Source: a virus (taxonomy: Duplodnaviria > Heunggongvirae > Uroviricota > Caudoviricetes). From it: a stretch of DNA of 64,000 nucleotides. Below the pieces are notes generated by a model. The model was not told the DNA's origin. It saw nothing but the letters and a program-made list of their open reading frames with translations, and made no database searches. The position numbers and the translations under genes were made by a program. Positions 9,573-63,517 of the stretch are shown here, piece by piece (within the stretch, counting starts at the first letter, position 1; each line of letters opens with the position of its first letter). The stretch lies in IMG/VR virus record IMGVR_UViG_3300043219_000435; one strand, given 5' to 3'.

Positions 9573-9602
9573 CAAACTGAAGTGATTAATGTACTTTAGT
9601 TG

Positions 9603-9763
9603 TGCGCTGTTGGCGAAACATTGTGCAGACGCTCAGGGATCATAACTCTTATTTAAATTGACTAAGACAAGCATCCCTGGATTTGCGAATGGAAGATTGC
9701 GAGGGGTATACACCGGACAATTGGAAACGAGTAGAATAGGGGTTCGAATCCTTTACGGCGCAT
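9603..9763 (+). ncRNA. tRNA-like / Y-RNA-like structured RNA, copy 3
   Basis: TGCGCTG pairs with CGGCGCA (covarying relative to copies 1 and 2); TTGGCGAAACATTGTGC box; T-arm-like AGGGGTTCGAATCCTTT; starts directly after TACTTTAGTT. Confidence 0.55.
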
Positions 9764-9784
9764 TTTCAACTAAAGTGAATAAAC

Positions 9785-17393: not shown

Positions 17394-17522
17394 GAATACG
17401 AACTAAAGTAATCAATTGACAATTTTAAGTACTTTAGTTAATATAAACGTGTACGGCACGAGTTTCACAGATGGGTTGTTTAGTCAAGTTCGAATCTTGG
17501 AGCTAAAACCGTATTAACTAAA

Positions 17523-17702
17523 GTAGGTTTTATGAATATTATTACGATTGATGAACAAAATTATGAGATAGTTTATACATCGAAGAAGAGAGATGTTGCA
17601 GCAAATATTTGTTACAAATTGTGCGAATACACACCAGAGCTTTGTCATTGTGAATGTCAATGTGATGATGGTAAAGAATATTATTTAAAGAAAGTAAAAT
17701 AA
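17523..17702 (+). CDS. small Cys-rich protein
   Basis: ..CYKLCEYTPELCHCECQCDDG; follows AACTAAAGTAGG. Confidence 0.35.
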   Translation, partial: VGFMNIITIDEQNYEIVYTSKKRDVAANICYKLCEYTPELCHCECQCDDGKEYYLKKVK

Positions 17703-37313: not shown

Positions 37314-37531
37314 CCACCCCACGGTACATGTTTACATGTTATTACTGCTTTACGGCTTCCACTATATTTTTTTAATTTATCTAAATCTTCTTGAGTATAC
37401 TTCTCTGGATGTGGATGGGGATTCTCAATTGAAACATTCAAACCATTTTCTTTTAAAGCTTTCTCAATGATATGAATCTCATAATCAAAAGTTGTTCCCA
37501 TTCCTTTTATTTCTATATGTATAGTATCCAT
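37310..37531 (-). CDS. hypothetical protein
   Basis: ORF. Confidence 0.35.
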   Translation of the reverse strand: MDTIHIEIKGMGTTFDYEIHIIEKALKENGLNVSIENPHPHPEKYTQEDLDKLKKYSGSRKAVITCKHVPWGG

Positions 37532-37722
37532 TACATCACTCTTTTAAATTTTTTATAAGATAATATTAAATCTGTAATAAAATATATATTGACCAATATA
37601 AGATTTATAATTATCAATATAAATATCGTTCCAAATCCAAAAGTATCATATATTATAATAGTAACACAAACAGATGCTGCTATTATTAATAATACACATA
37701 CAAACATTATTTTAATTAACAT
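37531..37722 (-). CDS. small membrane protein
   Basis: Two TM helices. Confidence 0.35.
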   Translation of the reverse strand: MLIKIMFVCVLLIIAASVCVTIIIYDTFGFGTIFILIIINLILVNIYFITDLILSYKKFKRVM

Positions 37723-37731
37723 TTTAACCCT

Positions 37732-37950
37732 TCACTTTAGTTCTTTAACATAGTCTACAATTTGTGTTGTATCACCAAAATTTATTGGATGTTCACCAAC
37801 CATTTTAGTACAAATAATAGCTATCTCATCAAGTATTTCTGTTTCTTCTTCTAATGTCAAATTACATTCACCAAAAGCAGGTAACTCAATATTTGATCCA
37901 ATAGTTGCAATTAACAATTTTGCTATTAATTTCTTTTTCTTTCTATTCAT
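37732..37950 (-). CDS. hypothetical protein
   Basis: ORF. Confidence 0.35.
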   Translation of the reverse strand: MNRKKKKLIAKLLIATIGSNIELPAFGECNLTLEEETEILDEIAIICTKMVGEHPINFGDTTQIVDYVKELK

Positions 37951-38354
37951 AATTTAAAAAATCGCTTTTCACTTACCGGCTTGTTTATGACATTTTCACG
38001 GATAACTTTAGTTGTACCATCAGGATACTCTTTTATTATGTCACATCCAGATAAGTATGTAATAGGAACGTTATTTGCTTTAGCTTCAAATACTGCCTTC
38101 TGACCACCAGCTAAAGCAAACTTTGCTATCTCTTCATCATATTCTATTATATATGATAAATCTCTTTTATCTTCAACTTTATCAAGTTCTTCATGAATAG
38201 AATTAAACTCTTCAATAGTTTTTGCTGCCATTAAACGATCTTCAAACTTCTTAGCAACATCATATATATTTTTCATTTGAATAGAAGTCAAATATCTACT
38301 ACGTAAATATTCTTGATAATCTTTCTGTTCCCATACTAATTCACTAATAATCAT
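37947..38354 (-). CDS. hypothetical protein
   Basis: ORF of 135 aa. Confidence 0.4.
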   Translation of the reverse strand: MIISELVWEQKDYQEYLRSRYLTSIQMKNIYDVAKKFEDRLMAAKTIEEFNSIHEELDKVEDKRDLSYIIEYDEEIAKFALAGGQKAVFEAKANNVPITYLSGCDIIKEYPDGTTKVIRENVINKPVSEKRFFKL

Positions 38355-38374
38355 AATTCACTTTAGTTTAAAAA

Positions 38375-38433
38375 GACGAGGGAGAGATTCGAACTCCCAT
38401 CTGCAGATATCTTGCCGGACCAAGAACCTCGTC
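38375..38433 (-). ncRNA. anticodon-arm-less mini tRNA-like element (59 nt)
   Basis: Minus-sense GACGAGG TT CTTG-GTCCGG-CAAG ATATCTGCAGAT GGGAG-TTCGAAT-CTCTC CCTCGTC; perfect acceptor, D- and T-arms, but only a 12-nt palindrome where the anticodon arm should be. Confidence 0.45.
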
Positions 38434-38437
38434 AGGA

Positions 38438-38725
38438 TTATAAATTCAACATACCTTTTAACTTATGCATACAGGCACGAATGTCTTTTTTATCTTCACG
38501 TAATCTGATTTCATTATCAACAAGGTTTTGACAATTAAATATCAAATAATATTTCTCAACTTCGGATTCAGCTAAATCTACCATATCAACAATATCATAT
38601 TTAAGAATCTCATTGGCTAACTGCCAACTCATTATTTCTAATTCAGATTGTTTAGTATATCTGACACATTTTTTAAATAATCGTTGAATCTCTGCTTGAT
38701 CTTTCTTACCAATCTTACCAATCAT
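38438..38725 (-). CDS. hypothetical protein
   Basis: ORF. Confidence 0.4.
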   Translation of the reverse strand: MIGKIGKKDQAEIQRLFKKCVRYTKQSELEIMSWQLANEILKYDIVDMVDLAESEVEKYYLIFNCQNLVDNEIRLREDKKDIRACMHKLKGMLNL

Positions 38726-38913
38726 AGTATACCAAATGTTATATCTAAGTAATAATATAACTAAAGTACTTTAGTTTGTCAATGGAATACAAATCATTTC
38801 AACATTTTCTATTGGATATTCTTTCCGTTCAGTAAATAACATCTTTAATTCAAATTCTTCGAAACTTGATGCTTCTTCATTAAATATGTAATCTTCTAAT
38901 GTCATCTTTTCAA

Positions 38914-39294
38914 TCATAATAAATTTGTAGCTCTCATTAAATCTTCATCTATTTCATCGAGTGGTGAAACAATCTGATACCAATCATAACCAGAGTCTTT
39001 GCGAAATATTCTATTATTTGTAGTTACGATGGTTGTAACTACATTTTGAGAAGAAACTCCATCATCTTTTGAATCAACTGAAGTAACATCCAACAATTTT
39101 ATATCTTCTGGTTCTTCAGGTTTCGTTGCATAATATTTACCTTTCAACTCTGTAAATAATGATCTTGCCTCACAGATAGCAGCAGTATGAATATGAGTTT
39201 CAGGATTTTTAATATGTTTAAAAGAACTTATTTCTTCACCTAAAAATTTGATCATATGATTTATATGTTCTATATCCACTTTAGTTTTCCTCAT
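38914..39294 (-). CDS. hypothetical protein
   Basis: ORF; MRKTKVD is encoded by the motif. Confidence 0.4.
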   Translation of the reverse strand: MRKTKVDIEHINHMIKFLGEEISSFKHIKNPETHIHTAAICEARSLFTELKGKYYATKPEEPEDIKLLDVTSVDSKDDGVSSQNVVTTIVTTNNRIFRKDSGYDWYQIVSPLDEIDEDLMRATNLL

Positions 39295-39415
39295 AATTTA
39301 TATGACAACGACAAGAGGCACAAACTGAAGTGCCATTGTGTCTACATGTATAACAATCACCTAACATAATATTCTCTACATTAAAAAACTAAAGTAATCC
39401 ATTTTTATTAATTTG

Positions 39416-40896: not shown

Positions 40897-41181
40897 TTAA
40901 CATTTTAAATGTACTGCAGTCAAAGTAGGTTCTTCCGGTTCCGTTACTTTAGTTGCTACTTCTTCTATAAAAACTTCAATAACTTGTTTTTTGAAGTGTT
41001 TGCGTTTCAAATATTCTTGATATTTACCAATTAAAAATCTTTCACAATAATCTAAACTATAACATGATTTTGTATCATCATAAGAATCTTTATAAATATG
41101 CCAAAATAAAAAAGTTTTATATTGAGGTATATACTGTTTATTTGCCATGGCATCTAATTTAATAATAATTCTATATTTCAT
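40897..41181 (-). CDS. MK(Y/T)RI-family small protein
   Basis: MKYRIIIKLD...; paralog of 41277..41591, 43115.., 43404.. and 44629..; RBS AAGGA. Confidence 0.45.
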   Translation of the reverse strand: MKYRIIIKLDAMANKQYIPQYKTFLFWHIYKDSYDDTKSCYSLDYCERFLIGKYQEYLKRKHFKKQVIEVFIEEVATKVTEPEEPTLTAVHLKC

Positions 41182-41195
41182 TTTAAATCCTTAAG

Positions 41196-41270
41196 CAGAC
41201 GTGGAAGGAATCGAACCCTCACTAGCGCTGATTTTGGAGATCAGTGTTCTACCGTTTGAACTACACGTCT
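41196..41270 (-). tRNA. tRNA, anticodon CCA (Trp)
   Basis: Minus-sense AGACGTG TA GTTC-AAACGGTA-GAAC A CTGAT-CTCCAAA-ATCAG .. GAGGG-TTCGATT-CCTTC CACGTCT; canonical cloverleaf, no encoded CCA. Confidence 0.7.
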
Positions 41271-41276
41271 ATAATA

Positions 41277-41591
41277 TTAATATTCTATTGTGATTGGGGC
41301 AAAGTCTACGTTCTCTATTTTTCTATCTTTGTCAAGATCTACCTTAGGTCTTTTGTCAAATCTCATAGGAACAATATTTATTTCAATTGGTTGTTGGCCT
41401 TCTATCAAAAATCTCTTGCGTCTTACCTTAAAGTCATTTAGTATATTATTTGTGACACTTTTAATATTACGGTTATCTACAAATGAATTAAATGACACGG
41501 GAACATCGTACCAACATATAAAGCTTTTCATTTCAGAACGATAATATACTTCTCCATCGTCATTTACTTTTACAATTATTCTATATTTCAT
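41277..41591 (-). CDS. MK(Y/T)RI-family small protein
   Basis: MKYRIIVKVNDDGEVYY.. start with RBS AGGAG; the longer track ORF to 41675 would run through the tRNA. Confidence 0.45.
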   Translation of the reverse strand: MKYRIIVKVNDDGEVYYRSEMKSFICWYDVPVSFNSFVDNRNIKSVTNNILNDFKVRRKRFLIEGQQPIEINIVPMRFDKRPKVDLDKDRKIENVDFAPITIEY

Positions 41592-41604
41592 TTTAACTCC
41601 TAAG

Positions 41605-41677
41605 CAGGTGTGACAGGCATCGAACCCGTAACCGTTGGATTTGGAATCCAGTGCTCTGCCAATTGAGCTACACACCT
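41605..41677 (-). tRNA. tRNA, probably anticodon CCA (one anticodon-stem mismatch)
   Basis: Minus-sense AGGTGTG TA GCTC-AATTGGCA-GAGC A CTGGA-TTCCAAA-TCCAA .. ACGGG-TTCGATG-CCTGT CACACCT. Confidence 0.6.
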
Positions 41678-41815
41678 ATTAATTATATTTATATAAAGTA
41701 CCAGATTACTCTGAACACTATTAAACAAGTTACCAGGAAAACCCAATTGAATTTCAATCGAAAATTTCCTATTTCTAATGAGATCCAAGCCCAACGTTTT
41801 TTCATCTTTGCCATT

Positions 41816-42919
41816 TTAAGCCTTTATGTTTATTAATGGAATAACTCGATGTTTTACTTCAACCAATTCTTCCTGTTCTTTCATTACATGGAAAATATCT
41901 TTATATGCAAATGGTGATTCATCAATTGTTCCTTGAATAACTTTTGCTTTAATACCTACCATAGATTCTTTAAAATCATCTAATGATATATTTTCTTTTG
42001 CTTGTCTTCTGCTAAGAATTCTACCGGCACCATGGGAAGATGAATAAAGAGAATCTGGATTTCCTTTACCTTCAACAATAAAAGACCCATCTCTCATATT
42101 CCCAGGTATCACACCTTCCATACCTGCTTCAGCATGTGTTGCACCTTTTCTATGAATCCACAAACCATCTTTAAATGTTGCATGATTATGATTTCTATTA
42201 ATCAATGATCTGAAATTTGCACCACCTTCACAATAATGTTTAATCTCTCTTACAACTCTTTCAAGCATTATCTCTCTATTACGAAGAGCAAACTCAAGAC
42301 AGAAATTAAGATCCATTATATAATTTTCACCTTCAACTGAAGTAACTTCTAAAGAATAATTTCCTTCTCTTGCTTTATTAGAATTTGAAGCAAGTTTCAT
42401 ATAATGTGTAGCAGTTTTATGACCAAGATTTCTAGATCCTGAATGAATAATAATCCAGATATCATCATTCTCATCATATCCTATTTCGATAAAATGATTT
42501 CCACTTCCCAGGGAACCCAATTGTTTTAATCCATTAATATCAAAATTTTCTCGACATGTTTTTGTACATTCAATTGCTTCAGCTTCTTTCCATGTACTTG
42601 AATGATCATTACGATTCATTCCGGTAGGAATTGCTCTATAGATACCATTAAAAATCTTTTCAGTTTGATCTACAATATCGCTCTTTTTAAAAGTGGTTTT
42701 TAAGGCACCTACACCGCAGCCAATATCATAACCAACCCATGCAGGGACAATATGTCCATCAGTGGCTACAACGGCTCCTATGGGTATAGAATAGCCCAAA
42801 TGTGCATCAGGCATCAATGCGCCACGTACAACAAAATCACATTTCATTGCATCATAAAATTGATTCATTGTTTTTGGTTCTATGTATTCAGCAAATACTT
42901 TATGTGGTTTTAATTTCAT
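41816..42919 (-). CDS. rtcB: RNA-splicing ligase RtcB (3'-phosphate/5'-OH RNA ligase)
   Basis: Full-length RtcB fold signatures: ..GCG.. Cys, NRNHNHA, SSSHGAGR, IPGNMRDGSFIVEG. Confidence 0.85.
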   Translation of the reverse strand: MKLKPHKVFAEYIEPKTMNQFYDAMKCDFVVRGALMPDAHLGYSIPIGAVVATDGHIVPAWVGYDIGCGVGALKTTFKKSDIVDQTEKIFNGIYRAIPTGMNRNDHSSTWKEAEAIECTKTCRENFDINGLKQLGSLGSGNHFIEIGYDENDDIWIIIHSGSRNLGHKTATHYMKLASNSNKAREGNYSLEVTSVEGENYIMDLNFCLEFALRNREIMLERVVREIKHYCEGGANFRSLINRNHNHATFKDGLWIHRKGATHAEAGMEGVIPGNMRDGSFIVEGKGNPDSLYSSSHGAGRILSRRQAKENISLDDFKESMVGIKAKVIQGTIDESPFAYKDIFHVMKEQEELVEVKHRVIPLINIKA

Positions 42920-43429: not shown

Positions 43430-43658
43430 GATATTTTACAACAGGAATACTATCAATTTTTTCTTGTATGAATGTTCTAGCATCTTTTATTGATTGGAAG
43501 GATATATTTCTTTTAATAGGTTGCATCTGTGGGAATGTAGGTGATGATGACATAATTTGATCCGTTTTTGTAAAACAAACCCATCCACTTAAATCTGCAT
43601 ACTGAGGGTAGAAACTACTTTTACCTTTAACAATTGATTCTTTTATTCTTGTTTTCAT
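43404..43658 (-). CDS. MK(Y/T)RI-family small protein
   Basis: MKTRIKESIVKGKSSFYPQ.. Confidence 0.4.
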   Translation of the reverse strand: MKTRIKESIVKGKSSFYPQYADLSGWVCFTKTDQIMSSSPTFPQMQPIKRNISFQSIKDARTFIQEKIDSIPVVKYHDETDHEV

Positions 43659-55081: not shown

Positions 55082-55612
55082 TTATTTACAATGTATTCTT
55101 TTTAGTTTTTTTATTTTCTTTTTTTCATAACGATCCATACTTAAACCCCACCAACTTTTAATTGATGTCCATTCGTTTAAGTATCCACATTTATTAATTT
55201 CGGGAAGCCATAATGTAGGCTCTCTACTCTTTCTTTCATATGCTAATTTTTTTTTAATAACAATTAAATGTTTTTCATAGTCAAGATAATTTGAAAATTT
55301 ATTTTTCTTTTTAGTATTCCATCTATTACCACCAGATCTCCAAGCTTCTCTTGTAGAAACTAAAGTGATAACTGAAATATTTTTCGGTTCGGTTATAGTA
55401 TCACCACTAAAAAAACATATCCATTTACCGGCTAATATATGTTTATAATCAGTTGATAATGTAATAGGTTCGATACTTCGGTCTATTAAAACTACATCTC
55501 GTATAGTACGTCCATAAGTAGATTCATAAAACATTTTCCATTCATATGATTTGTATGGTATAAGAGAGAATGTGTTGCTGATAAGTATGATAATTAAAAA
55601 GATATATTTCAT
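55082..55612 (-). CDS. secreted paralog of 54525..55070 with a degenerate HNH core
   Basis: Same architecture (GKWICFFSGDTI..), but the catalytic His positions are replaced (VITLVSTREAW). Confidence 0.4.
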   Translation of the reverse strand: MKYIFLIIILISNTFSLIPYKSYEWKMFYESTYGRTIRDVVLIDRSIEPITLSTDYKHILAGKWICFFSGDTITEPKNISVITLVSTREAWRSGGNRWNTKKKNKFSNYLDYEKHLIVIKKKLAYERKSREPTLWLPEINKCGYLNEWTSIKSWWGLSMDRYEKKKIKKLKRIHCK

Positions 55613-55690
55613 TTTTGTCCTGAATAGACAGTCCTGCAGCGATTAGGGTGGGGACGTGGGTGTTAATCGTTATCTGCAGGACTTTTGGGA

Positions 55691-56101
55691 TTATGAGTTA
55701 GTTAAATTTGCTACTTCTTCTTTTACTTTAGTTACTTCGAGAGCATCGAATTTTTCAAGAAAAGTATTTATTTCATGTAATTTTTTAATTGTATTAAGAG
55801 CAAGTTCTTTATAATAAAACTTGGATTTCTTTTTTGATTTAAAATCTTTAATCAGTGCCTCAAGCATTTCAGGTTGTTGTTTGAATTGTTCAATTGGAAC
55901 GATTGCTTCAATACCTTCGTCTGTCTTAACATGGCCATTAAATGTAGGGTCGTCGAGTAAATCTTTGGTTTTTTCTAAAATTGTCATTTGAGTTGATAAA
56001 TGTCTCTGCTCCATATCTTTATCGTCACAAAATTCTTCGATCGATTTTTCTAGTAATCGAAGTTCGGAGCCATCAAAAATTAATTTGTTTTTCATATTCA
56101 T
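55691..56101 (-). CDS. hypothetical protein
   Basis: ORF. Confidence 0.4.
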   Translation of the reverse strand: MNMKNKLIFDGSELRLLEKSIEEFCDDKDMEQRHLSTQMTILEKTKDLLDDPTFNGHVKTDEGIEAIVPIEQFKQQPEMLEALIKDFKSKKKSKFYYKELALNTIKKLHEINTFLEKFDALEVTKVKEEVANLTNS

Positions 56102-60630: not shown

Positions 60631-60713
60631 AGTTTTGATAGGATTTGAACCTATAGTTACTTGGCGTTAACCAAGTAGCCGGTTTATGAGACCAGTGCGT
60701 TTACCAATTTCGC
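60631..60713 (-). ncRNA. tRNA-like element (canonical arm order, CAU anticodon loop, extra variable-arm hairpin, mismatched acceptor)
   Basis: D-arm GCG-AAATTGGTAAA-CGC, anticodon arm CTGGT-CTCATAA-ACCGG, hairpin ACTTGG..CCAAGT, T-arm ATAGG-TTCAAAT-CCTAT; the complementary 5' strand GGTTTTG lies about 35 nt upstream of the D-arm. Confidence 0.4.
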
Positions 60714-60855
60714 TACGATGTAATTGTACATTGCAGTACTGATTAATCAAAACCTGGACTGTAGTTATATAATAATGAAATTATAAAAATTAACTACAGC
60801 CAGGATTTTCAATCATATAAATGGGTAAAAGTCAAAATAAGCGTTTTCTCCCGTT

Positions 60856-60911
60856 GCTCTACCAACTGAGCTACTTGCCCCCGTTATGGGCAAAGATGGA
60901 TTTGAACCACC
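60856..60911 (-). ncRNA. circularly permuted tRNA-like module B (YrlA-type Y-RNA-like)
   Basis: Minus-sense T-arm GGTGG-TTCAAAT-CCATC, acceptor 3' TTTGCCC, loop ATAAC, acceptor 5' GGGCAAG, TA, D-arm GCTC-AGTTGGTA-GAGC; preceded by the GTGTTGCAG..AGATACTTCG box. Confidence 0.5.
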
Positions 60912-61005
60912 GACACACAGCTTTACATACGAAGTATCTTATTCCTGCAACACCATTTAAAACATAAAAAAATTATAGGAAAAAATCAATCAGAGAGAAT
61001 ATCGT

Positions 61006-61061
61006 GCTCTACCAACTGAGCTATTCCCCCATGTTACGGGGAAAGATGGACTCGAACCACC
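61006..61061 (-). ncRNA. circularly permuted tRNA-like module C
   Basis: T-arm GGTGG-TTCGAGT-CCATC, TTTCCCC, G TAACAT, GGGGGAA, TA, GCTC-AGTTGGTA-GAGC; same flanking box. Confidence 0.5.
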
Positions 61062-61218
61062 GGCCACGTCGTTAAAAGCGAAGTAACTCTAATCTGCATC
61101 ACTACAATTTTTTTTATCACTCTCTAATCTTTGATCTACATAATAAAGAACATGATCTCAGAATGATAAAAATCAAATAAATAAATGGGTAAAAATCGTT
61201 AAGAGAATCTATATCGTT

Positions 61219-61275
61219 GCTCTACCAGACTGAGCTATCTCCCCACGTTACGGGGAAAGGTGGATTCGAACCACC
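61219..61275 (-). ncRNA. circularly permuted tRNA-like module D
   Basis: T-arm GGTGG-TTCGAAT-CCACC, TTTCCCC, G TAACGT, GGGGAGA, TA, GCTC-AGTCTGGTA-GAGC; same flanking box. Confidence 0.5.
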
Positions 61276-61381
61276 GACACACGGCTCCTAATGCGAAGTA
61301 ACTCTACACTGCAACACCATTTATTTAATATTTTAAAAATACAATAAAAAGAATGGTAAAAATCAATATAACAAATTTTTT

Positions 61382-61434
61382 TCTCTACCAATTGAGCTAT
61401 ATCCCCCTGGGGGAACAATCGGACTCGAACCGAT
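61382..61434 (-). ncRNA. circularly permuted tRNA-like module E (short loop)
   Basis: T-arm ATCGG-TTCGAGT-CCGAT, TGTTCCC, CCA, GGGGGATA, D-arm GCTC-AATTGGTA-GAGA; variant flanking box. Confidence 0.4.
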
Positions 61435-61541
61435 AACCTTTTGTATTTCAAACAATCGAAGTAAGTCATATTTGCAACACATTCTTTTTATTTTATTCTT
61501 AAAAAATTAGTAGGTAAAAAACGTAATAAGTGGTCTTTTGT

Positions 61542-61611
61542 TTACAATACCGGGATTGAACCAGTAACGTTTGATTAGCTATCAAATGCTCTACCAGTTG
61601 AGCAAATTGTA
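61542..61611 (-). ncRNA. tRNA-like element, canonical order but atypical (A33 in anticodon loop TAGCTAA, terminal acceptor mismatch)
   Basis: D-arm GCTC-AACTGGTA-GAGC, anticodon arm TTTGA-TAGCTAA-TCAAA, T-arm ACTGG-TTCAATC-CCGGT, acceptor GTACAAT/ATTGTAA; preceded by the flanking box. Confidence 0.35.
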
Positions 61612-61797
61612 CGAAGTAACTTATAACTGCAACACTACTAAAAGTTTTAAATTATAATAATCAGGTAAGTATCGAGGATAGTGTCTAGTTTTTTATTTTG
61701 AGAAAAAATTTTTCGAAGTAACTATTCCCTGCAACACTAATTATTATTTTTTATTAATTTCTTATCTATATATAAAGATAATAAAGATCAAAGTTAT

Positions 61798-61833
61798 AGT
61801 CAACCATTATCTTTCAAATGGCTGACTTTTTTA
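61798..61833. terminator. hairpin plus T-run abutting the Ro60 stop codon
   Basis: TAGTCAACCA..TGGCTGACT followed by TTTTTT on the plus strand; orientation relative to a transcript is unclear. Confidence 0.35.
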
Positions 61834-61834
61834 A

Positions 61835-63517
61835 TTATAAATCTACAGCATTTACCATGTCAATAATACCATGCTTCATAGTTTCCATTTCAACTACACT
61901 CTTAAGAAGATTATCACTCCATCCGCTAAGATGCATGTAATTATTATTCTTAGGATCTAACTGAGTAGAACTATCATTTGCTGCCAAGTTAAATTCATAA
62001 ACCTTAATTGACTTATTCACTTTAGTTTGATAAGTTTTAAGATCCTGGAACAAACTTGATCCACCATTATATGATCCGTTAAACTGACAATCAGTGAATA
62101 CGAACATTTGATCAACATGTATATTTCGCTTTGTAATATCTTGCATTACAGAAGCAAAATTTGTTGAATGACCAACTGAAGTACTCATGATCTGTTTAAC
62201 TCGATCAAGAGGATTATGTTTACGTTCATCAACTGCTACTATTTTCTCATGATTACCGAAACCATAAATAATTGATTTATCACAATACTGTTGCGCCAAT
62301 GAACCCATAACAGCACCGATTTCCATATAAGTAACAGATCCTTCTGCAGACAAAAGAGTATTCATAGAAGCTGACAAATCAACAGCAATTACGGTATTAC
62401 CATTCATCTTTGGTACATTCTTACCGGAATGCCATAATGCTTTATTAAGAGCACTTAAATAACGATCCCTGACAGTTCTAGTGTTTTCAGTGCCAGACCC
62501 ACCATATTTAGAATCGAAGGGATCTGTATTTTTATGTCCCCAACCACTCGTATTATATCCAGAGTTTCCACCAATAGCTTTATACGCACTCCAATATCTG
62601 AAAGGGAATTGTTTGCCTTTTTCTACTGCAGTCTCATTGGATAAAAACTGAAGTGCCATTCTATGTGCTTCTTCTGACAAACCACTTTCAATGATGTTAC
62701 GAATATTTCTTAACAAAGCCATATAAGGAAGTTTTTTAGCAAGAATTAATTGTTCCCAATTATCTTTTTTGGCAGCATCAACTTCTTTTTTCACTTCAGT
62801 TTTAGTCTTACCTTTTTTATCAATCTGACCGGCACCTGAAATTTTATTTTCCCAGGTATTTGCTTTCTCAAGAGTACCGTTCATAAATTTCTTCCAAAGC
62901 TCAGCTTGATCAGAATCAATTGGTTTAGGTCTAAGAATTCTGAAAATATCTCTCAATTTAACTTCTTTCTTAGCAGCTTTGTATTTGTCCAACTGATAAG
63001 CATCAAATTTTGAAATAGAATTTTGTAAACCAATTCTCAATTGTTTTGAAAGTTTTTTCTTGATATGTCTAGAACCATGTACAGTTGTTTTTTCTTTACT
63101 GTAATTATAAATCAAGTAAGAGATAATTTCTGTAATATCATCAACACGACAAGTAACTCTTTCAGCAACAGTTTTAACAACTGAAGTATCAACATCTTCT
63201 TTTTCATTTAACTTAGAAACAATTCTTGAAAGTTCCGCAGTCAATACATGAGAAACACTTCTTAGATTAAACTTTTCACGGCTTAATACAGCAAGTTTAG
63301 CAAGAAATACAGGATCTTCTTTACCGACTTTGTCGATAAGTTTATGTAGTTCTTTATCAGATTTGTATCCGCTTTTATAAAATTTATCTTGACCATAGAA
63401 ACACGTTAAAACTCTATCACACAAATCTTGATAGATAGATTTTTCAAATGCTTTTACTCCATCACATGAAGTAGTCATTTTACGTGTTTTTTTCGGAGTG
63501 GTATTAAACTTAGACAT
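61835..63517 (-). CDS. rsr: Ro60/TROVE-domain protein (Rsr orthologue) with a C-terminal vWA/MIDAS domain
   Basis: 560 aa; a helical TROVE-like N-terminal two-thirds and a C-terminal VIAVDLSASM (DxSxS MIDAS)...T...D vWA; adjacent to the tRNA-like RNA cluster, with rtcB in the same genome region. Confidence 0.6.
   Translation of the reverse strand: MSKFNTTPKKTRKMTTSCDGVKAFEKSIYQDLCDRVLTCFYGQDKFYKSGYKSDKELHKLIDKVGKEDPVFLAKLAVLSREKFNLRSVSHVLTAELSRIVSKLNEKEDVDTSVVKTVAERVTCRVDDITEIISYLIYNYSKEKTTVHGSRHIKKKLSKQLRIGLQNSISKFDAYQLDKYKAAKKEVKLRDIFRILRPKPIDSDQAELWKKFMNGTLEKANTWENKISGAGQIDKKGKTKTEVKKEVDAAKKDNWEQLILAKKLPYMALLRNIRNIIESGLSEEAHRMALQFLSNETAVEKGKQFPFRYWSAYKAIGGNSGYNTSGWGHKNTDPFDSKYGGSGTENTRTVRDRYLSALNKALWHSGKNVPKMNGNTVIAVDLSASMNTLLSAEGSVTYMEIGAVMGSLAQQYCDKSIIYGFGNHEKIVAVDERKHNPLDRVKQIMSTSVGHSTNFASVMQDITKRNIHVDQMFVFTDCQFNGSYNGGSSLFQDLKTYQTKVNKSIKVYEFNLAANDSSTQLDPKNNNYMHLSGWSDNLLKSVVEMETMKHGIIDMVNAVDL

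Follow-up and report, generated by a model that had tools for sequence, protein, structure and literature searches.

A tRNA-like gene without an anticodon arm in a large A+T-rich phage: architecture, genomic setting and similar phage genes

The locus and its surroundings

The DNA analyzed here, a stretch of 64,000 nt referred to below as the window, looks like a part of a large, A+T-rich phage rich in RNA-related functions. On its minus strand, two orphan ORFs follow one another, and a tRNA-like element devoid of the anticodon arm occupies most of the 83-nt gap between them (Table 1). The upstream ORF ends with the TAA codon at 38440-38438, 4 nt ahead of the element, and the ATG of the downstream ORF (at 38354) is placed 20 nt past it. 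The original prediction located the element between a motif and the downstream gene. The order turned out to be different, as the element is followed by U5, the motif AACTAAAGTGAAT, and the ATG; hence, the element lies upstream of the motif. The sequence AACTAAAGT is present in 121 exact copies in 64 kb.

The 3′ context of the element, comprising the acceptor 3′ strand, the U-run, AACTAAAGT, and the start codon, is common to the element and three paralogous RNAs of approximately 150 nt encoded in the window. Exact matches to GTTCGAATC were found four times in the window, all of them within intergenic RNA candidates. The window also encodes an RtcB protein, followed by two tRNA-Trp genes which, similarly to the element, are wedged between ORFs and lack the encoded CCA, as well as an NAD-dependent ligase and a Ro60/TROVE protein, the gene of which precedes 4-5 tandem YrlA-like Y RNAs. 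The element is separated from the Ro60 gene by 23 kb. It adds to the unusual cluster of tRNA-related functions in the window, represented by RtcB, Ro60 with the Y RNA array, the duplicated tRNA-Trp, and the T-arm-bearing RNAs.

Table 1. Coordinates of the element, its parts and the neighboring features in the window.
Feature	Position	Strand	Remarks
tRNA-like element without anticodon arm	38375..38433	-	59 nt; based on sequence, MFE fold, Rfam tRNA model and descriptor scan
Acceptor stem, 5′ strand	38433-38427	-	GACGAGG
U8 U9	38426-38425	-	based on sequence
D stem-loop	38424-38411	-	CTTG GTCCGG CAAG; 4-bp stem, 6-nt loop
Linker ATATCTGCAGAT	38399..38410	-	12 nt; stands in for position 26, anticodon arm and variable loop
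T stem-loop	38398-38382	-	GGGAG-UUCGAAU-CUCUC; 5-bp stem
Acceptor stem, 3′ strand	38381-38375	-	CCTCGTC; abuts the T stem
Discriminator U and U-run (UUUUU)	38370..38374	-	CCA not encoded
Upstream ORF, orphan	38438..38725	-	95 aa; only self match; no PHROG match
Downstream ORF, orphan	37947..38354	-	135 aa; only self match; no PHROG match
Motif AACTAAAGTGAAT	38356..38368	-	just upstream of the downstream ORF start; 9-mer core recurs genome-wide
Sigma-70-like promoter candidate TTGACA-17-TATATT	38754..38782	-	consensus match only; precedes the 95-aa ORF; palindromic spacer AACTAAAGTACTTTAGT
Three paralogous RNAs of ~150 nt	228-378, 725-879, 9600-9766		T-arm-like hairpin plus acceptor-like stem at the end of each
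RF02553 matches (YrlA-like Y RNAs)	60830-61447		next to Ro60

Architecture of the element and chance expectation

Read from 38433 to 38375 on the minus strand, the element has the sequence GACGAGG TT CTTG GTCCGG CAAG ATATCTGCAGAT GGGAG TTCGAAT CTCTC CCTCGTC and is followed by TTTTT. The perfect acceptor stem GACGAGG/CCTCGTC (7 of 7 positions paired), the D-arm CTTG-GTCCGG-CAAG, the minus-strand location, and the length of 59 nt announced by the original prediction were all seen in the sequence. None of the 16 base pairs is disrupted, and the T-loop agrees with the consensus. The T-arm had been described as canonical, which holds for the loop and the 5-bp stem, with the reservation that the stem includes one G·U wobble (G50·U64). 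In the D-loop GUCCGG, the GG is kept, and both A14 and A21 are absent. The acceptor pair 3:70 is C-G, not G3:U70.

The linker had been considered a 12-nt palindrome unable to form an anticodon stem-loop. Only 12 nt separate the D stem from the T stem, too few to accommodate both an anticodon arm and the variable loop; however, the palindrome does not span the whole of ATATCTGCAGAT and is confined to the inner 10-mer ATCTGCAGAT. In the MFE fold, the linker can pair into no more than a 3-bp stem around a 4-nt loop, and the fold of the whole element corresponds to the cloverleaf minus the anticodon arm. Of the features of a canonical tRNA, the element possesses the acceptor stem of 7 bp and, next to it without a gap, the T-arm (5 bp, UUCRANY loop) and misses the anticodon arm with its 5-bp stem and 7-nt loop. 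The core of the original reading was supported: the element is a tRNA-like gene which retains the acceptor stem, D-arm, and T-arm and lacks the anticodon arm. The roles suggested for it fared differently, as discussed below. The CTGCAG palindrome of the linker was ruled out as a special site, since it is common across the genome (35 copies versus 22 under a maximal-order Markov model) and its enrichment reflects mostly lower-order composition.

ARAGORN called neither a tRNA nor a tmRNA at the element. The Rfam tRNA model RF00005 aligned to it end to end with the D and anticodon regions collapsed and a score of 24.1 bits versus the gathering score of 29, the E value being 0.0097 in the local search and 1.4 in the search of the whole window. 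The window was also scanned with a descriptor that called for a T-arm with the TTCRANN loop, a D stem no shorter than 3 bp, and an acceptor stem abutting the T-arm in which no more than one of the 7 pairs may be missing. Besides the element, which was the sole match in the range of 50-66 nt, the scan returned a weak candidate of 75 nt and three tRNAs of the ordinary cloverleaf type. In 300 simulated sequences (first-order Markov, dinucleotide transitions of the window), only six descriptor matches were obtained in total, i.e., approximately 0.02 per window, with criteria looser than what the element satisfies. The G+C content of the element is 53% against 30% for the genome. Its folding energy is not exceptional (z = -1.05), which is usual for short RNAs. 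From these results, the element was concluded to be tRNA-derived and not a chance match.

A recurrent class of armless tRNA-like genes in phages

Megablast of the region 37400-39400 against GenBank phages gave no hits, and the element, used as an exact or degenerate DNA pattern, was not found in IMG/VR, JGI metagenomes, or GTDB genomes. The flanking proteins had no relatives in IMG/VR, and both were singletons (self matches only) among 5.8 billion proteins. The armless element was absent from three RtcB-bearing IMG/VR contigs, the RtcB of which is 52-62% identical to that of the window. The D-arm pattern gave one match in metagenomes, inside a soil coding sequence, and this was considered to be due to chance. 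A parent tRNA was sought among the tRNAs of the window, of the contigs L001-L003, and of S-PM2, and no convincing one was found; the best blastn match in S-PM2 proved to be an ordinary unannotated tRNA-Ser-like gene. Because no relatives were present in any collection searched, direct comparison of the locus is barred, and selection on the window copy is judged here from analogues, not orthologues.

Such analogues are numerous, and the armless architecture is a discrete, recurrent, and covarying class in phages. Its members are 57-62 nt long. The 5′ strand of the 7-bp acceptor stem is followed by 2 nt and by a D-arm with a 4-bp stem and a GG-containing loop; a linker of 8-13 nt then leads to the T-arm (5-bp stem, canonical loop), which the acceptor 3′ strand abuts. 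The window element, with its 59 nt and the 12-nt linker, satisfies this definition. When IMG/VR was scanned with the commonest D-arm followed by N{3,16} and the T-arm, matches were obtained in at least 58 contigs, and the scan with the D-stem bases freed gave matches in at least 79 contigs; these counts are lower bounds. The class was ascertained via sequence patterns tied to one D-loop/T-loop type. Among the matches listed for the first scan, the spacers were exclusively 11-16 nt long. In the scan with the freed D stem, three loci with 6- or 8-nt spacers had no acceptor stem and one locus with a 10-nt spacer was well formed. The companion scan with N{17,24} detected almost nothing at 17-20 nt and many matches at 21-24 nt. 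This gap in the spacer length indicates that the armless genes, 57-62 nt long overall, form a discrete class by length.

The search pattern placed no constraint on the acceptor stem. At least 6 of its 7 pairs, together with the complete T stem, were found in 36 of the 46 distinct sequences (approximately 0.03 estimated to be expected by chance), and imperfect acceptor stems were found in about 10 of the 46. Double compensatory changes were observed at all seven acceptor pairs and at the three free T-stem pairs in an alignment that had been pre-filtered for pairing. The percentage of paired positions is inflated due to this pre-filtering and to the patterns fixing one D-loop/T-loop type. The freed D stems stayed paired in the variants GAAC/GTTC, GCAC/GTGC, GTTC/GAAC, and GATC/GATC. 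In two T7-like contigs, the element is located between the scaffold and capsid genes and differs by three compensated pair changes, with the scaffold proteins being only 47% identical. Hence, at this orthologous locus the element is conserved with compensatory changes.

The class members tend to be oriented in the same direction as the flanking ORFs (28 versus 10 for the upstream and 23 versus 12 for the downstream neighbors, gene calls at these loci being crude ORF calls), as is the case for the window copy. Many of them occupy late-operon junctions, i.e., between capsid and tail-tubular genes, between scaffold and capsid genes, upstream of terS, or downstream of the lysin gene. All-against-all blastp of the neighboring ORFs revealed no conserved partner protein for the class. 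The same pattern applied to bacterial and archaeal genomes (596 Gb) gave at least 72 matches, 17 of them well formed; several of the latter were identical to copies from viral contigs, which suggests that they belong to prophages.

The window copy differs from the ascertained members in its D-arm (CTTG GTCCGG CAAG, with the 6-nt loop and no A14/A21) and in its U-run, which is usually missing in the members found elsewhere. A covariance model of the class, R1, was built from 33 members with the window copy left out. It matched the element end to end with 17.8 bits and an E value of 4.7e-6 when 801 nt were searched with filters off. With default filters over the full window, the element was passed over, since a single D-arm sequence dominates the model.

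Members of the class are present in known phages. Polaribacter phage Danklef_1 carries a 58-nt copy at 43546-43603, annotated as tRNA-OTHER, Undet_(NNN). Approximately 30 Lactococcus phages of the P335 group, including ul36, P335, bIL286, bIL309, TP712, and 63301, possess a copy of 60 nt, left without annotation, that is flanked by the lysin gene on one side and by the integrase/attachment region on the other, and the armless gene of proPhi1 adjoins Abi-like and methylase genes. On the map of the Lactococcus prophage phiKW2, a "predicted unspecified tRNA" appears without a comment (PMC3757294). The phage genes labeled "tRNA-OTHER/Undet(NNN)" have the same size and architecture as the window element; they are annotation by-products with no described function, and their D-arm is of the common GCTCAGTTGGTAGAGC type, unlike CTTG GTCCGG CAAG of the window copy. 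Some copies have been annotated in passing, as "tRNA-OTHER/Undet" or "unspecified tRNA"; a study of the class by anyone appears to be absent, as our search of the full-text literature on phage tRNA-like genes without the anticodon arm found no dedicated one.

As to the origin of such genes, the 3′ half of the armless gene of L026/Streptococcus porci is nearly identical to the intact tRNA-Phe(GAA) of Streptococcus phage Javan565. From this sequence likeness, at least this gene looks to be derived from an intact tRNA-Phe, which implies that armless genes arise from tRNAs via the loss of the anticodon arm. Some of the armless copies may be on the way to decay. A precise deletion of just the 7-nt anticodon loop was rejected as the source of the architecture, since it would give no variable loop and an extra base.

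Possible roles and comparison with other tRNA-like RNAs

The reading we favor, with confidence that is about even, is that the element is a genuine, selected tRNA mimic without the anticodon arm, which RNase P and RNase Z would release from the transcript of the operon. This minus-strand operon would run from the promoter candidate at ~38782-38754 via the 95-aa ORF and the element to the 135-aa ORF. The 5′ end would be generated by host RNase P, with the cut separating U(-1) (38434) from G1 (38433), RNase Z or its equivalent would cut past the discriminator U at 38374, and CCA would probably be added after the cleavage. The U at -1, G1, the U discriminator, the U-rich trailer, and the lack of the encoded CCA (as in the tRNA-Trp genes) fit the excision. 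The parts that have been retained, i.e., the T-arm with the 7-bp acceptor stem stacked on it and the elbow formed by GG of the D-loop and the T-loop, would be those which the processing enzymes read. RNase P, RNase Z, and the CCA-adding enzyme do not require the anticodon arm.

Several precedents are consistent with such processing. External guide sequences deprived of the anticodon stem-loop still direct RNase P (PMC4693268), and RNase P also cuts the tRNA-like module of Y RNA, which has a 7-bp acceptor and acquires CCA (PMC4201824). At mRNA ends in plant mitochondria, RNase P and RNase Z are guided in cis by t-elements, a type of degenerate tRNA; that of Arabidopsis nad6 has no anticodon arm (PMC5499578; see also PMC1920247). 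Among the roles originally proposed, that of a handle for RNase P or other readers of the acceptor, T-arm, or elbow appears to be the best supported, as judged from the architecture, the operon position, and analogy. The suggested primer-like function found no support.

The predicted processing would have two consequences. The two cistrons would be separated, which would represent mRNA punctuation as with plant mitochondrial t-elements, and a stable tRNA-shaped RNA of ~60 nt would be released, unable to decode and most likely not aminoacylated. Charging is unlikely because of the C3-G70 pair and the lack of the anticodon, and aminoacylation by AlaRS was ruled out, as G3:U70 was found neither in the element nor in the class. 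The pay-off might fall in cis or in trans. A benefit in cis is not obvious, since after the cleavage the upstream mRNA would end without any 3′ structure, and the downstream one would begin with a 5′ monophosphate.

We consider it unlikely, though worth serious attention, that the element is only a deletion relic, i.e., a non-functional pseudogene of a phage tRNA which recently lost the anticodon stem-loop and for which decay is still to come. Armless genes do come from tRNAs, as exemplified by L026/S. porci and the Javan565 tRNA-Phe(GAA); moreover, the copy in the window is a singleton with a degenerate D-loop and a score under the tRNA threshold, and the imperfect acceptor stems in a part of the class speak in the same direction. 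However, the 16 pairs and the T-loop consensus have stayed intact despite the strong A+T pressure on the genome. The combination of the non-canonical D-loop with perfect stems fits selection on the stems only better than a fresh deletion. Elsewhere, the architecture is length-discrete, covarying, and syntenic across 47% protein identity, and the 3′ context of the element is common to other structured RNAs of this phage; all of this argues against a relic.

If the selected, excised mimic acted in trans, it might serve as a decoy or sponge that titrates a factor recognizing the acceptor end or the elbow, an option which seems to us quite doubtful. The candidate targets are host immune toxins altering or cutting tRNA 3′ ends or acceptor stems, processing or modification enzymes, and a partner from the Ro60/Y RNA/RtcB set. 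The phage is heavy in tRNA mimicry and RNA repair (RtcB, Ro60, and the YrlA-like Y RNAs), the armless gene of the Lactococcus P335 phages resides in the lysin-integrase "moron" region with the proPhi1 copy next to Abi-like and methylase genes, and the loss of the anticodon arm would presumably spare translation yet keep the protein-binding surfaces. Nevertheless, no conserved partner protein accompanies the class, and the element lies far from Ro60, whereas Y RNAs are found within 4 kb of it (PMC4201824). The decoy for anticodon nucleases put forward in the original prediction is unlikely, as the loop cut by such enzymes is missing in the element. A wider version of the trans-acting role, which we hold to be equally doubtful, would have many phage lineages encode dedicated armless tRNA mimics of ~58 nt that are excised, supplied with CCA, and act on readers of the acceptor end or the elbow without entering translation. 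T7-like podoviruses, lactococcal P335 siphoviruses, flavobacterial phages, and the large A+T-rich phage described here would be the candidate lineages, with tRNA-targeting immune effectors or enzymes of tRNA maturation and quality control as the candidate targets. The element would then be a member of a T-arm-RNA toolkit together with the Y RNAs and the three paralogous RNAs of ~150 nt.

It is very improbable, in our view, that the element is a terminator or a 3′ stabilizer, the G+C-rich branched structure and UUUUU of which end or protect the upstream transcript, with the likeness to tRNA being incidental. The terminator scan flagged the T-arm hairpin with a T-rich tail (38398-38382), the U5 run is placed directly past the acceptor stem, and the motif found genome-wide, possibly promoter-related, stands before the next gene. 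Yet the 7 nt of the acceptor strand intervene between the flagged hairpin and the U-run, and intrinsic terminators need no 7/4/5-bp cloverleaf with the perfect T-loop and GG in the D-loop. The mostly missing U-run in the class members elsewhere is also at odds with a terminator function.

The results suggest that phages encode RNAs of a kind that has mostly escaped attention and that makes use of the tRNA-processing enzymes of the cell without decoding. If functional, these genes would represent a common class of phage small RNAs overlooked by the standard tRNA finders or labeled by them "tRNA-Undet". Phages would then use the tRNA shape stripped of decoding either as an operon processing signal or as a mimic directed at the tRNA-binding machinery of the host. 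The former outcome would be a bacterial-virus counterpart of the mitochondrial tRNA punctuation and t-elements. Both are testable in the Lactococcus P335-group phages and in Polaribacter phage Danklef, which share the same architecture. Annotation of phage genomes would also improve. The value lies more in the recurrent class than in the single copy of the window.

Among the known systems, the element seems, by analogy, to most resemble t-elements and mascRNA in the functional sense, and structurally also the tRNA-like modules of YrlA and tmRNA. The tRNA-like domain of tmRNA shares with it the acceptor stem, the T-arm, the reduced D region, and the lack of the anticodon arm. However, tmRNA has a ~300-nt mRNA-like/pseudoknot insert and the G3:U70 alanine identity pair, neither of which is present in the element (59 nt, C3-G70). 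mascRNA is cut from MALAT1 by RNase P and RNase Z and receives CCA, the RNase P cut forming the 3′ end of the upstream RNA. Both mascRNA and the element are tRNA-like RNAs of ~60 nt with a defective anticodon region; the former is eukaryotic and nuclear, keeps a reduced anticodon stem-loop, and has no homology to the element.

YrlA (RF02553), a substrate of tRNA enzymes, has the T-arm, the D-arm, and an acceptor-like stem in common with the element, and no anticodon arm. In contrast to the element, it is circularly permuted, 100-150 nt long, encoded within ~4 kb of Ro60, and has a Ro60-binding stem, made up of the two RNA ends, in place of the anticodon stem (PMC4201824). The element is unpermuted, with open acceptor ends and no Ro-binding stem, and the RF02553 search gave no match at it, the matches in the window being those next to Ro60.

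The t-elements are likewise degenerate and tRNA-like, mimic the acceptor/T-arm with a conserved T-loop, lack an arm (the anticodon arm in the case of nad6), and are found at mRNA boundaries in the same orientation as the genes. They are organellar, with the cleavage demonstrated, whereas the phage element is viral and its cleavage is predicted; no sequence relationship exists between the two. The phage class is also more regular than the t-elements, with the full 7-bp acceptor, the 4-bp D stem, and the linker of fixed length.

A repeated 9-mer and the small RNAs associated with it

The 9-mer AACTAAAGT occurs in 121 exact copies in the 64 kb, on both strands and throughout the window; about two would be expected from the base composition by our estimate. 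It is frequently located 0–14 nt upstream of a start codon, its reverse complement is found in a promoter-like layout (TAGACNTGTCAA-N11-13-TACTTTAGTT), and stems built from inverted pairs of the motif enclose small RNAs.

Three paralogous intergenic RNAs share a 9-bp terminal acceptor-like stem, in which the changes are compensated, with an invariant UGGCGAAA directly behind its 5' strand. In each, a T-arm-like hairpin precedes the 3' strand, followed by a U-run and AACTAAAGT. They matched no Rfam family, and no tmRNA was detected in them by ARAGORN. Another candidate small RNA is the intergenic region at 17398-17530. Its T-arm, TCAAG-TTCGAAT-CTTGG, is perfect, and the 15-bp stem that closes it pairs the motif with its complement (z = -2.2 for the fold).

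Coordinates of features in the window
Feature	Position	Strand	Remarks
Paralogous intergenic RNAs (three)	228-378, 725-879, 9600-9766	plus	~150 nt each
Motif AACTAAAGT, example sites	9768-9780, 38356-38368, 62015-62027		
Intergenic region with T-arm	17398-17530	plus	
RtcB ligase gene, then duplicated unit	41100-42919	minus	
G+C-rich island	55609-55695		inverted repeat GTCCTGCAG...CTGCAGGAC, loop ~30 nt
Tandem Y RNA-like units (4-5)	60637-61800	minus	downstream of Ro60/TROVE gene
Ro60/TROVE gene	61835-63517		

Y RNA-like array and tRNA-Trp unit

Every unit of the Y RNA-like array starts with GTGTTGCAG...GTTACTTCG, and most units carry a permuted tRNA-like module. One of them (61541-61612) holds a full cloverleaf, called by ARAGORN as tRNA-Ser(gct). 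The Rfam YrlA matches in the array reached 25–38 bits and so fell short of the gathering score (69). The 144–156-nt matches to the tRNA model are artefacts, each covering two neighbouring units. The duplicated unit after the RtcB ligase gene comprises a tRNA-Trp(cca) and a small ORF whose protein starts with MKYRII; neither of the two tRNA-Trp genes encodes CCA.

Restriction-site counts

CTGCAG was counted 35 times in the whole window; dinucleotide shuffles predict 5 copies, and a maximal-order Markov model predicts 22. No copy of GGATCC, TCCGGA, CTCGAG, GTGCAC, GCCGGC, GAGCTC, or GGTACC is present in the window (4–8 copies expected of each). This absence looks like restriction-site avoidance.

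tRNA-like genes in other phages and bacteria

Synechococcus phage S-PM2 (NC_006820) has an apparently intact class II tRNA-Ser(UGA)-like gene at ~102852-102939 (1440-1527 of locus L004), under which the record carries no annotation. The IMG/VR contigs L063-L182, of which many come from sample 3300045988, contain numerous tRNA-like genes whose anticodon region is 2–5 nt below the canonical length, with a D-arm to T-arm spacing of 21–24 versus the canonical 25–26; several of these have a 3-bp 'anticodon' stem and lack U33. In a Bacteroidota group (genomes L191, L200, L206, L208, L210, L214, L219, and others, from Chitinophagaceae, Spirosoma, Larkinella, and Flavobacterium), a canonical D-arm is followed 13–16 nt on by a T-arm, but an acceptor stem is missing from the tRNA register; the group probably represents a different tRNA-like RNA family.
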